Positions 1,126-14,660 of a stretch of 64,000 nt of DNA are shown piece by piece; positions within the stretch are counted from its first letter, which is position 1; every line of letters starts with the position of its first letter. Under the pieces are notes generated by a model. The model had not been told where the DNA came from, did not search any database, and saw only the letters and a program-made list of their open reading frames with translations. The stretch comes from Haplodiscus bocki (taxonomy: Eukaryota): contig OZ296651.1 in NCBI GenBank assembly GCA_965655095.1, positions 108,314,001 to 108,378,000 on the forward strand, written 5' to 3'. The translations under genes were made by a program, and so were the position numbers.

Positions 1126-1475
1126 TTAAGTGATTATTTTTGATCAACATCATCAATCAAAATTGGTCTAATAGATTGTTGTTCATCTTTAATCAATTTC
1201 TCAAATGGAAGCATATATAATATATTCTCTCTTAGATCATGAATATTTTCAATACTTTTTTCAATTTCAACATCATGAATTTTTTAAATTATATCATCGA
1301 TTATAGATAAACTTACAAGAAATCTAGTATGAGGAATTGTTTATAAAAACTGTTGATTATGCATTTTCGTACTTGATTTAGTTCTTCTGTTTTTCCCTTC
1401 TGTTTTTCCTACATTTTTATAATCATAAAATACTGCAGCATTACAAAAATTTAATATATCTTTCATTGTCTCCAT
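1126..1475 (-). pseudogene. Hypothetical Polinton protein with internal stops
   Basis: TAAATG start at 1475. Reads METMKDILNFCNAAVFYDYK... with two in-frame stops; the probable end ...DVDQK(I)IT* needs a 1-nt correction. Confidence 0.5.
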
Positions 1476-1489
1476 TTATTAGAATAAAT

Positions 1490-2013
1490 CTAATCATAAT
1501 TTGAGTGAATTTCATTTATTTTTATTTCTTCACGATTTATAATATCATCATAATCAATATCAAACAACTTATCAATATCATCTACATCAGTATTTTATCT
1601 CTGTACAAATCTAAAATAAGGTGTTAAGTAATATATATATTCCCTTCCTGTTGCAATACTACATGGTGTGAGGTTATTACCCATATTCGAGATGTATTTA
1701 AAAAATTTACATTAGTTAGATATGTACAAATCATATCACCTCCGATAAACACATACCTATGTTTATTATTTTCTTCACCTATTTTAAGTAAAATAGTATT
1801 TCCTTCAAATACTTCTTTATTTTTTGCTCCCGAAAATTCAGTCATATCACATAGTTGACTTTTGCCTAAAAATATTTTCAAAGGACTAACTTTGTATATA
1901 ATATTTTTATCTTCAGAAACATCTTCCAATTTCTGTACTCGAACCCATCCTTTATTTTGAAAAGTTACTCCATCACATTTACAATTATTTTCTGTTACAT
2001 ATATAATTGTCAT
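1490..2013 (-). pseudogene. Hypothetical protein resembling an uncharacterised NCLDV family; frameshifted at ~1700
   Basis: GNTILL...YVFIGG followed after the shift by YISNMGNNLTPCSIATG..YIYY. Confidence 0.55.
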
Positions 2014-2028
2014 TTATATAGAAAAAAA

Positions 2029-2274
2029 TTATAAAGGTTTTTTAGTTTCTAAGTATTCTATTCTACTAATTTTCATTTTTAATTCTATATCTAAATCTGT
2101 TATTGTTGTACCCATTATATTTATCAATTCTGTAAGAATAACATTCCGTATCAAAGTGTCATATCCTATTTTTGATTGATAATTATAAGGTAATCTCATA
2201 TATCTATCTAGCATATCATTTATTTTGTTTCGTACTTTGGAATCTTTTCTAATTACAATTATAGAAGCTTCCAT
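2029..2274 (-). CDS. Hypothetical protein (81 aa)
   Basis: Intact ATG ORF tightly packed with neighbouring genes. Confidence 0.5.
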   Translation of the reverse strand: MEASIIVIRKDSKVRNKINDMLDRYMRLPYNYQSKIGYDTLIRNVILTELINIMGTTITDLDIELKMKISRIEYLETKKPL

Positions 2275-2350
2275 TTTATTAATGGTAATTTGTTTCAGAT
2301 AATCTCATCTAATAAATGATATAAAGGATTAATTGTTTTCATTAAAGTAA

Positions 2351-2593
2351 ATGTATATAGCAGATGTTACAGATTATGATAATATGATTGATGATTATAA
2401 CGATAGTTTATCAATAAACAATAATTGTACAAACAATGAAAATAATTTTGATATAATTATACCAGCAGTATTGTTTACAATACCTTGTGGTCTATCATTT
2501 TTATGTTTAATATCCCTCATGGTATATACTTTAATCAAACCTTTATTAAGCAAAAAAATGAAACATTTTAAATATTCTTGCTTATATAAATGA
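2351..2593 (+). CDS. Small membrane protein (80 aa)
   Basis: TAAATG start; acidic Asn-rich N-terminus with N-x-S/T sequons, hydrophobic IIIPAVLFTIPCGLSFLCLISLMVYTLI segment, basic tail. Confidence 0.55.
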   Translation: MYIADVTDYDNMIDDYNDSLSINNNCTNNENNFDIIIPAVLFTIPCGLSFLCLISLMVYTLIKPLLSKKMKHFKYSCLYK

Positions 2594-11056: not shown

Positions 11057-11074
11057 AGAATCTTAACCAAACAT

Positions 11075-11200
11075 ATACTTGTAAGTATACTCGAGTATAA
11101 GTACTCTTAATAATTATACGATCACATAATTTCTATGATTGTATAAGTACTCATATAATTGTAAGTATACCTATGTATAAGTACAAATATAATTGTATGT
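11075..11200 (+). promoter_or_regulatory. Repeated palindromic motif block upstream of PolB
   Basis: gtaagtatac...gtataagtac...tataattgt repeated, includes the palindrome tatactcgagtata; related actcatataactgta at ~5858. Confidence 0.4.
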
Positions 11201-11259
11201 AGAGAAGTTTGACATCTTAGATAAATCATTTCAAGTAAATTCTTACTATATAAATAGAA

Positions 11260-14200
11260 ATGATAATGAATAACGAAAACAGAAAATTAGCACGAAATGG
11301 AAAACGAAGAATTGAACGAAAAATTAAAATGGATGATAATATGAAATTATTATTAAATAAAATTAAAACAGAAAAGAAAAAGAAAAATAAAGAATTTTGA
11401 TAAAATTAAAGAATTAGAAATTGAATTGGTTAAAATAAAATATTCAAATAATCCTAATAAATTACAATCTGAATTGAAAGAATTAAATAAAATTCAAGTT
11501 ATTATTAAAAATATACATGAAATTAAACAAGAAATATTATTAGATTATGTTGGCGAGTTTGAAATGCTTGGTTATTGAAAAGTTGGCGATCATATCAGAG
11601 AAACGCATACTAGATTTAGAAATTTTAATGATTACGAAGCTTTTATCAATTCAATCGATAACGATTATGATTCAGAAGACTCTATTTTCAATGGTTATAT
11701 TCATAAAATAGATACACCACAATTTAATTTAGTTAATAGATCTCAATATGGAAATGGTTGTGATTTTAAACATGAAATAATTGAATATCGAGGTAAAAAT
11801 TGTTTTATACCAACAATAGGCTATTGTTTCATTAAATATATAAATTTTTCAACTGGTCAAGATTACAAAGAACGATATCTTGACTTTATCCGAAATGAAA
11901 AAACGAGATCAAATATCATGACTGTGGCTCGTATTCAACCTTGTTAAAAAAATTAGGTATTGATCTTGGTTTTTTCAATGGTGATAGAGTCTATCCTAGA
12001 ACGGTGATGAATAGAGATAGTGCTTTGTTTTTATACAATAATCATTTATGTTCAATATGGAAATCACAAGGTGTTAGTTTTAATCAAGCCATTCGAGAAC
12101 TAAAAGATAAATTTAAAATGGTTGATATTTTTATAACAGAAGAAAATGTAAATTCTCATTTTAAATAGGAATTCATACCAAAAAAACCGAATCTCATCTG
12201 ACTAATTTTATTGTGTATGATCTTGAAACACATAATACAGATAGAGCTCGTCCTTATAATATGACCTTTTATCGATTAAGTAAAATTAGTGGTACATTTG
12301 ACCGAGATCCTACACCACAAGAATTAACAAAATCAATTAATCACACTTTATCATTTGCTGGTGATGATTGTATTGAAAAGTCGTTAGATTTTTATTAAAA
12401 TTCAAAGGTGAAGAAGGAAAAGTTAATAATAAAATTGTCGAATATAAGTTACAGATGCATGCTCATAATGGAAGTGGATTCTATTCTTGGATTATATTAA
12501 ATAATCTTCCTTGTGATAAGCATATTGTTGATATTATTAAAAACGGAAAAGGTATTGTTTCTTTAAAAGTATTTAATGGCCTTATTGAAAAAAAAATAAA
12601 AACAAATTCCTCAATATTTATTATTTAGATGTGGTATGACTCATTTGAATTATTCTTTGAAAAAACTAGGAAAGACTTTTAAATTACCAAAACAACTTCT
12701 AAAAACTGAATTGGATCATGATAACATCAATGAAAATAAGTGGAGAAATAAAAAAAATGAATAGTTACCTTATGTTAAAAACGACCTTCTATGTACTGCT
12801 TATTGTTACGCTCGATATAATAAATGTATGGAAGGAATAACTGGATTCTCGATGAAAGACTGTTTATGATTACCTGGATTAGGATGGAAATATTTTAATA
12901 GTTTAAGAACAGAAGAAGACGAACCTATATACACATACAATATTAAATACACGAGATGGTTTGTTCGTCAATCAATAAGAGGAGGACGAGTATGTGCGTT
13001 TAATCATTATTATAAATCAAAAATTTGTGATGACATCTTAAAAATGATATCAGAAAAATTGAATGTTAAAGGAAATAGTTATGATATTATTGAAGCTTAT
13101 TTGGAATATAAAAGTAAACATTTTAAAATTTATTAAAAAGAATATGAAAATCAATTTAATGATTATAGAGATGAAAATGAAGAAGATAAAGAAAAATATA
13201 TTAGTGAAAAATTGAGTCAATTACCAATTCATCATTTAATAAAACAAATGAAATTAGTTGAACTACTATGGGACTTCGATGCTGTTAGTTTATACCTATC
13301 TGCTATGTGGGATGAAAAATCAATATATTCAAGGATTGAAACAGGGTATGCTTTTACAAGAGATATGAATAAATTTCTCGTTCATAAATTTAATAATAGT
13401 AATTTTAATCACGGAAGCGCTATTTTGAAAATTGAACATTATAATCCAGAAAATTTAATCGTTCAACATCTTTCTGTTAAAGAGCGTGGAAAGAAGATTG
13501 AGATTAATGGTATGAGAAACGGATATATTATAGACTATCTAACATCCGTTGATATTCAAGAAATCTCTAAAATTGGAGGTAGAGTAATAGAAATTTATGA
13601 AGGCGTTATTTATCGAGAAAACTTTAAATTAAGTCCATTTAGAAAAGTTATTGATATATTATTTGCTTTAGGACAAAATTATAAAAAACAAAATAACGAT
13701 GTTATGCAGTTGTTAGTAAAATTATTAATGAATTCATTATATGGAGAAAACATACGAGAAGATATTGAAGAAAAATTTGCTTGTAAATCTGAAGCATGGA
13801 TGATGAGTGAATACGATGAAAGAGTAGAAGAATATTGGAAAATATCAGGTATTAATTATATTGTTAAAATGATTGATGATGCTGGATTGGAAGATGAAGT
13901 TTAAAAATTAAATACTATACCATTACACTTAGTAGCTTTTGTTTTATCAAACAGTAAAAGAATTATGAATCATTTCTTACACGCGATTAATGGATTTCAT
14001 ACAAATGATGTTTATTATACAGACACAGATAGCTTGTATATTGAAAACAAACATTGGGATAAATTAGACAAAGCCAAATTATTTGGAAAAAGACTATTAC
14101 AAGAATGATTATAAGGACGGTGGAATATTCTATGGACTGCTTTTAGTTCCGAAAATGAAATTTTGTTTAACTATAAATAAATTCGGTGTTATTGACGAAC

Positions 14201-14502
14201 ATAAAACTTTCAAAGGATTCACTAATGTGTCTGATAATTCAGACAGAAAAGAATTTTTTAACATGGCTGATGGTGATAAATTAATTGCTAAAGTAACTTT
14301 GAGTTGGAAAAAGCCATATGGTATGGGCATTGTAATACCACATAAAATCAGAAATTGTAATAAATGCACAAAAGATAGTCTATGTGACGAATGTGATAAA
14401 TTAATAAATCAGAGAAAAGAATTCTCGGCTAATCTTAATGAAATATACCGAGAAAAACCTAATGATTGTGGTCATATGCTTCCTAAGTATATAATCACTT
14501 AA
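11260..14502 (+). pseudogene. Protein-primed family B DNA polymerase (many stops and frameshifts)
   Basis: ExoI VYDLETH, ExoII AHNGSGF, ExoIII YVKND, RGGRV, DAVSLY.SAM, KLLMNSLYG, YTDTDS. Confidence 0.95.
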
Positions 14503-14522
14503 TCATATTTGTTATCTTATAA

Positions 14523-14660
14523 ATGGTTGTAAAAATAAAAGAAAAATATAAAAAGGCTAGACATGTTAAAAATAACGACAAATCTAAAAAATACATTTTA
14601 CGAGGACAAAGAAATGTAAGATATCATGAACGAATTCTTTCTAATAAAAAAATCTTGTAA
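14523..14660 (+). CDS. 45-aa Lys/Arg-rich micropeptide
   Basis: TATAAATG start; MVVKIKEKYKKARHVKNNDKSKKYILRGQRNVRYHERILSNKKIL*; other copies differ largely synonymously. Confidence 0.65.
   Translation: MVVKIKEKYKKARHVKNNDKSKKYILRGQRNVRYHERILSNKKIL

Follow-up and report, generated by a model that had tools for sequence, protein, structure and literature searches.

In a stretch of 64,000 nucleotides from the genome of Haplodiscus bocki (assembly GCA_965655095.1, contig OZ296651.1, positions 108,314,001 to 108,378,000; referred to as the window) we found that nearly all genes of a Polinton/Maverick element at positions 1-16043 begin at the motif TAAAT, which mostly overlaps the start codon as TAAATG. 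Together with a T-rich element around the tenth base upstream, this TAAAT(G/A) motif most likely constitutes a poxvirus-late-type transcription promoter. An earlier note, made from the letters of the window alone, had likened TAAATG at many gene starts to the late initiator of poxviruses and had suggested that the element, which lacks an RNA polymerase, was transcribed by a helper large DNA virus. The sequence comparisons described here make it probable that this Polinton depended for its transcription on a large DNA virus of poxvirus type and lived as a provirophage.

The ten TAAATG sites and the two TAAATATG sites (3904 and 4348) listed in the earlier note were all present, and each corresponded to a homologous gene start in other copies of the element. 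Two sites had been overlooked, namely a TAAATG at 10237 and a TAAAT at 11251 just ahead of the polymerase frame. Among 16 starts in the window that were confirmed by homology, 11 showed TAAATG, two showed TAAATATG and three were without the motif (2274, 6344 and 7061). TAA preceded 18 of the 517 other ATGs between 1000 and 14600 (3.5%; binomial p 3e-13 against the starts). TAAATG occurred 29 times in 13.6 kb when both strands were counted. In-frame internal ATGs are a biased control because they can never follow TAA, and ATGs in any frame as well as first ATGs after a stop were used as null sets instead.

We extended the count to the window and 29 other copies, which were fetched as separate 10-kb halves (a single half for one copy). 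Twenty-nine genes were anchored via N-terminal peptides, giving 645 hits, of which 50 without an ATG were dropped and 595 were kept, a few duplicated loci included. At these homologous starts TAAATG was found in 450 cases and TAAATATG in 39, and a TAAAT lay within 25 nt in 540. The modal start context was TAAAT in all 29 genes. Because the anchors were derived from open reading frames (ORFs) that had already been seen, a reference-free test on 59 loci was added, in which the first ATG followed TAA in 229 of 492 ORFs of at least 100 amino acids (aa) but in only 679 of 12062 tiny ORFs (5.6%). The enrichment at starts over other ATGs, proposed in the earlier note as a check, was borne out both in the window and across the family.

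The motif was built of two parts. The modal distance from TAAAT to ATG was 3 in 24 of the 29 genes, 5-6 in four, and 15-17 for the polymerase, where TAAAT also lay 15-17 nt upstream of the start in 18 of 19 other copies; TAAAT thus persists where the ATG has moved away. The base after TAAAT was G in 454 cases, A in 84 and T in 2 (G or A in 538 of 540). When 28 genes were pooled and aligned on TAAAT, T reached frequencies of 0.77, 0.78 and 0.72 at positions -11, -10 and -9. A T at -10 accompanied 0.74 of 612 start-linked TAAAT in comparison to 0.32 of 6439 other TAAAT. Two or three T at -11 to -9 were found in most copies of 25 of the 29 genes (p 2e-11), a window that was picked after the data had been seen, with -10 being the published position. 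In vaccinia virus the late promoter consists of TAAAT, after which the G of the start codon usually comes, and of a conserved T ten bases upstream (PMC11980589), and has also been described as TAAAT(G/A) lying 5-7 bp past a T-rich core (PMC5294985). The same features were found here: TAAAT followed by G or A, overlap with the ATG (450/595), and a T-rich element with T at -10. A reading of the motif as a splice acceptor was rejected, as there was no conserved AG ahead of the ATG.

Across copies the TAA was conserved at 0.94-0.98 and the -10 base at 0.89, in comparison to 0.63-0.72 for most other upstream positions. Both parts of the motif are conserved above the neutral flanks and were hence under selection while the ancestors of the copies replicated. 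The genes themselves showed ratios of nonsynonymous to synonymous divergence (dN/dS) of 0.15-0.19 at a dS of 0.56-0.77 between copies (four genes, with 3-13 equal-length ORFs per gene), and these copy differences show that purifying selection acts on the family genes. Divergence of synonymous sites to this extent left the motif unchanged, so that it was selected during ancestral replication.

The motif was also found in relatives of the element. A second capsid clade in the source genome (G000), with a major capsid protein (MCP) about 52% identical, showed the same start motif (30 loci). The capsid genes of this clade (L091-L120) lay between the same neighbouring genes, and this gene may be subject to modular exchange. 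A more distant metagenomic relative (L146; 44% MCP identity, same gene order) carried TAAATG at six of six whole-gene starts, each with a T at -10 as read by eye off the start contexts. A seventh plus-strand ORF of this contig, without the motif, was located at the contig edge and is probably a cut gene; two near-identical contigs (L147, L148) were counted with it as one lineage. Pieces of the family covered all 30 bins in two coral metagenomes, a result that shows presence only. Together with the mitochondrial COX1, which reads under the invertebrate code, this makes a marine host among the invertebrates likely. No relative was found in IMG/VR by scans with four queries, namely the MCP, an alignment of MCPs, the integrase and an alignment of an accessory gene.

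A second, unrelated Polinton family in the same host, with at least 40 copies in G000, showed host-like start contexts. TAA preceded 3 of 184 first ATGs in ten of its copies, and position -3 was mostly A. The T that TAAATG places at -3 is a poor scanning context. One copy of this second family is located on the minus strand of the window at about 53000-61000 (rve and A32 matches; 37-39% GC, guanine plus cytosine), and further copies are L126-L145. We further compared signal words between the two families. AATAAA occurred 3.4 times per kb in coding DNA of the TAAAT family, with an observed/expected ratio (O/E) of 1.0; after stops it was found in 84 of 285 cases versus 5 of 91 in the second family, a difference confounded by composition.

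If the helper-dependent reading is right, a large DNA virus infecting the same cell would supply the RNA polymerase and the late factors that read the promoters of the element, and each gene would be a transcription unit of its own, starting inside TAAAT with almost no 5' untranslated region. The poxvirus polymerase starts in TAAAT and slips, which results in 5' poly(A) leaders (PMC6211774), and slippage would probably add such a leader to the transcripts of the element as well. The element would replicate and be packaged only in helper-infected cells and between infections would wait in its integrated state, as mavirus does. As helper, a virus of the poxvirus kind (Chitovirales-type) from a marine invertebrate is probable; alternatively, it may be an unstudied nucleocytovirus with the same signal. 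The earlier note had assumed that the element encodes no RNA polymerase, and this was confirmed: the gene set, scanned against Pfam and PHROGs, yielded none, and outside the polymerase region there was no ORF of sufficient length for one. The promoter part of the earlier proposal gained independent support from the -10 T, the G/A rule, the conservation, the distant relative and the absence from the second family. Its helper part fits the precedent of the virophages, and we infer it from these findings. More tentatively, an undescribed poxvirus or close relative might infect the host lineage, with this Polinton clade as its provirophage in hundreds to thousands of copies and possibly serving as an inherited antiviral system.

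Several observations weigh against a helper of poxvirus type or against the strength of the comparisons. Four genes (g03, g20, g22 and g24) had no majority signal at -10. The motif is short and, save for the G, composed of A and T only, so that convergence may account for it. The copies are related to each other, and only the gene-level counts are near-independent. The second Polinton family is not a composition-matched control given its 37-39% GC versus 26%, and since AATAAA was undepleted in that family too (O/E 1.4), this test separates the families poorly. Beyond the A32-type ATPase common to Polintons, Pfam and PHROGs searches found no gene shared with poxviruses. The earlier note had recommended looking for sequences of nucleocytoplasmic large DNA viruses in host data; the four marker families Pox_VLTF3, Pox_Rif, Capsid_NCLDV and Pox_polyA_pol remained unmatched in G000, where the controls were silent too, making this a weak negative. 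Finally, the poxviruses described in the sources consulted come from chordates and arthropods; the host here is an invertebrate, and the element also occurs in the two coral metagenomes.

Three other explanations of the motif were considered. The promoter might serve host RNA polymerase II in the nucleus, acting by itself or together with a small element-encoded factor and without any helper. Several sites do read TATAAAT and resemble a TATA box, and the element integrates in the nucleus, but a TATA box sits 25-30 bp upstream of the start site, which would put the ATG outside the message, and the second Polinton family manages in the same host without the motif. Avoidance of the splice-donor word GTAAG, which was stronger in the second family (O/E 0.17) than in the TAAAT family (0.64), gives a weak hint in the same direction. 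A candidate for an element-encoded factor might be seen in the zinc-ribbon gene, for which 17 of 109 members gave weak TFIIB-zinc-ribbon matches (best E 0.002), but none of the 109 matched a VLTF or A2L family in Pfam. We therefore regard transcription by the host polymerase as unlikely. The motif as an unused relic of a helper-dependent ancestor, or as a by-product of AT-richness, appears highly improbable to us. The low GC content of about 26%, the 29 occurrences of TAAATG in 13.6 kb and the mostly broken state of the copies examined would suit such an origin; the enrichment in the window alone (p 3e-13) refutes chance, and the motif stayed fixed during the synonymous divergence of 0.56-0.77.

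The earlier note had itself named stop-start translational coupling as an alternative for some sites. In this case the genes would be packed stop to start or re-initiated on polycistronic messages, and the TAA would be the stop of the preceding gene. The genes are indeed tightly packed, and in g04, g06, g10, g16 and g19 an upstream stop was the commonest scored class for the TAA. ORFs of the family ended in TAA, TGA and TAG in 305, 113 and 69 cases (n=487, premature stops included), but starts followed these triplets in 229, 5 and 2 cases (n=492), a bias towards TAA beyond that of the stops. Counts in the 'spacer' class were too high owing to premature stops where the upstream gene is broken, and intact examples were used instead: in intact stretches the motif was also located in spacers of 9-162 nt and inside the upstream frame (-4, -20). 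At a divergent gene pair without an upstream gene it stood back to back on both strands (L079, L080). The motif further shifts out of frame in TAAATATG and lies 15-17 nt upstream of the polymerase start, and coupling does not predict the -10 T. Coupling accordingly explains about five junctions and is largely excluded as the general cause, for which we consider it quite improbable. A late-type promoter used by a helper virus remained the favoured explanation.

The element itself was identified as Polinton/Maverick from its DNA polymerase B of the protein-primed type (pPolB), rve integrase, A32-like ATPase, double jelly-roll MCP, and terminal inverted repeats with a 6-bp target-site duplication. 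It is not classed here with the virophages as a taxon (Lavidaviridae/Virophaviricetes). The degraded copy in the window (1..16043, no strand assigned) was delimited by its termini, inverted repeats and GC profile, with 24-31% GC per kb across the gene region versus about 35-45% over most of the flanking DNA. The copy extends 51 nt beyond the window on the left, and this end was seen in L089, which covers the same locus with its flank. The right terminal inverted repeat (15858..16043, no strand assigned) pairs with 82-143 and the stretch preceding the window, and is followed by the duplication (16044..16049, plus strand), identical to the left flank in L089. A perfect 6-bp duplication was found in three of four other copy pairs, and the remaining pair matched in 5 of 6 positions. 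The ends of the element (L089; window 16043) open with AAT repeats, unlike the AG/AGT-type ends listed for vertebrate Mavericks. Subterminal arrays were found on the left (window 534-947, repeats of 142-144 bp) and on the right (14682-15801, a 30-bp unit repeated 24 times in four blocks). At least 40 copies of about 76-83% identity were found in G000 (45 rows in the copy search, with 40 of 4887 candidates scored). Homologue searches turned up mainly further copies of the family. Internal pieces of the element were tandemly amplified in L026, L027, L029 and L030 (G000:C1 15.29-15.32 Mb) and in L063. The window copy is disrupted by stops and frameshifts; some 3 kb are missing at 3230, and 9536-10045 holds a displaced piece.

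At the left end of the window copy, three genes are encoded on the minus strand. The first is broken here and retains its start with TAAATG (1473..1478, start at 1475). It is followed by a gene of unknown function with TAAATG and TTT at -11 to -9 (1624..2016; 174 aa in other copies), for whose product structure prediction gave a predicted local distance difference test score (pLDDT) of 42 and was unusable, and by a small gene of unknown function without the motif in this copy (2029..2274). All further genes are located on the plus strand. A small gene with TAAATG at its start (2348..2593) precedes the A32-like packaging ATPase (2587..3230), which starts with TAAATG at 2590, two codons ahead of the homology anchor at 2596, and is broken and truncated by the deletion near 3230; the Pfam family Pox_A32 was matched with E 2.5e-12 on an ORF of L079. 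A C-terminal remnant of the double jelly-roll MCP (3230..3842) was recognized by homology to other copies. The 430-aa capsid ORF of L079 matched PF21738 (E 9e-12), and a PDB search with the MCP profile gave spurious matches only. The putative adenain-like protease starting at TAAATATG (3899..4254) is broken by stops, and its Peptidase_C5 match was weak (E 0.016); penton candidates of 260 and 300 aa were without a family match in Pfam. A long, putatively fibre-like gene with a TAAATATG start (4343..5867) is frameshifted and had a weak PHROG tail match.

Five small genes follow (5876..7648), with TAAATG at 5879, 6122 and 7217 and none at 6344 and 7061 in this copy. In the HNH/endonuclease VII-like gene (7677..8273) the start codon is missing at the homologous place. 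Besides this free-standing gene, the polymerase ORF of L080 (4701-7274) contains an endonuclease VII-like domain. The rve integrase (8316..9188) is frameshifted and has its TAAATG (8319) inside the upstream frame; rve was matched with E 2e-12 in an ORF of another copy and 2.5e-8 in the window. The zinc-ribbon gene with TAAATG at 9182 (9179..10250; 174 aa in other copies) is split by the displaced piece. It shows the pattern CxxC-13-CxxC (window 9182; L080:3303-3827) and is among the few genes without a -10 T in most copies. The idea that it encodes an A2L/VLTF3-like factor, suggested by the spacing of this pattern, was unsupported by Pfam or PDB. Next to it are a gene of unknown function of about 275 aa in other copies (10234..11056, TAAATG at 10237), the -10 T and displaced TAAAT ahead of the polymerase (11241..11255, TAAAT at 11251), and the pPolB gene itself (11260..14502; DNA_pol_B_2 E 4e-10), which has many stops and frameshifts and a start assigned from position. 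A small right-end gene with TAAATG (14520..14660, start at 14523) completes the set. Outside the element, LINE-like (long interspersed nuclear element) frames with endonuclease and reverse transcriptase were seen by eye on the minus strand at 24849-28583.

Animal Polintons may be autonomous or may need large DNA viruses, and such dependence has been raised as a hypothesis (PMC8097293). One genome with two Polinton families, one with host-like and one with poxvirus-late-type starts, makes this question testable. On the helper-dependent reading, a virus resembling poxviruses should exist in a host group without any in the literature surveyed. If true, start-codon motifs might sort animal Polintons into autonomous and helper-dependent ones and point to the type of helper. 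No published report of a TAAAT(G) motif in a Polinton was found in a search outside of which most subscription papers and bioRxiv supplements lay. What appears to be new is a complete promoter of the poxvirus late type in an animal Polinton, helper-promoter sharing itself being already known.

With animal Mavericks/Polintons (Polintoviricetes, adintoviruses) the element shares pPolB and the rve integrase, the packaging ATPase of A32 type, a double jelly-roll capsid protein and, putatively, the protease, as well as terminal repeats, the 6-bp duplication and mostly defective copies (PMC8097293, 10.64898/2026.06.19.733378). Activation by giant viruses is presented in the accounts seen of those elements as a hypothesis only, without promoter evidence (PMC8097293, 10.64898/2026.06.19.733378). 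The polinton-like viruses associated with entomopoxviruses are likewise related to Polintons and have been suggested as parasites of a poxvirus in an animal, but they were linked to it by co-sequencing from occlusion bodies, are about 12 kb long and have a tyrosine recombinase or no integrase (PMC11296320). The main text and one supplement file of that study held no promoter analysis, and 'promoter', 'motif' and 'TAAAT' did not occur in the main text (PMC11296320). In the present element the link to a poxvirus is the promoter, found in an rve/pPolB element. The yeast pGKL1/2 are cytoplasmic linear elements of the pPolB type. Their initiator is TAAAN, and slippage gives them 5' poly(A) leaders such as are expected for the element here, but they bring a poxvirus-related RNA polymerase and capping enzyme of their own as well as an upstream element of the early type, none of which is found here (PMC6211774).

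Among viral late signals, the initiator overlapping the ATG, the G/A after it and the T-rich element at -10 are shared with vaccinia/mpox (PMC11980589, PMC5294985). The difference is that here the motif heads nearly all genes, including polymerase and integrase, in a small element without transcription machinery, and initiation at the motif is predicted. Late genes of African swine fever virus use a TATA initiator (PMC7163114), and the late signals described for mimivirus and Cafeteria roenbergensis virus (CroV) also differ from the TAAAT motif. Virophages carry the promoters of their helpers, and a provirophage is reactivated by the helper. Such sharing is known among the virophages of protists, and it has served to deduce a helper that was not itself seen (10.64898/2026.07.28.741278). 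Mavirus and the endogenous mavirus-like elements (EMALEs) of Cafeteria, Sputnik/zamilon and Gezel-14T are, like the element described here, small integrating double-stranded DNA viruses whose genes carry a giant-virus promoter motif, with different motifs in different endogenous virophage types (PMC10945749, PMC11464507, 10.1101/2022.07.28.501842). Those virophages have protist hosts, Imitervirales helpers, other motifs and a dependence shown experimentally, whereas the element of Haplodiscus bocki is an animal Polinton whose motif is of poxvirus type and whose helper we infer from it.

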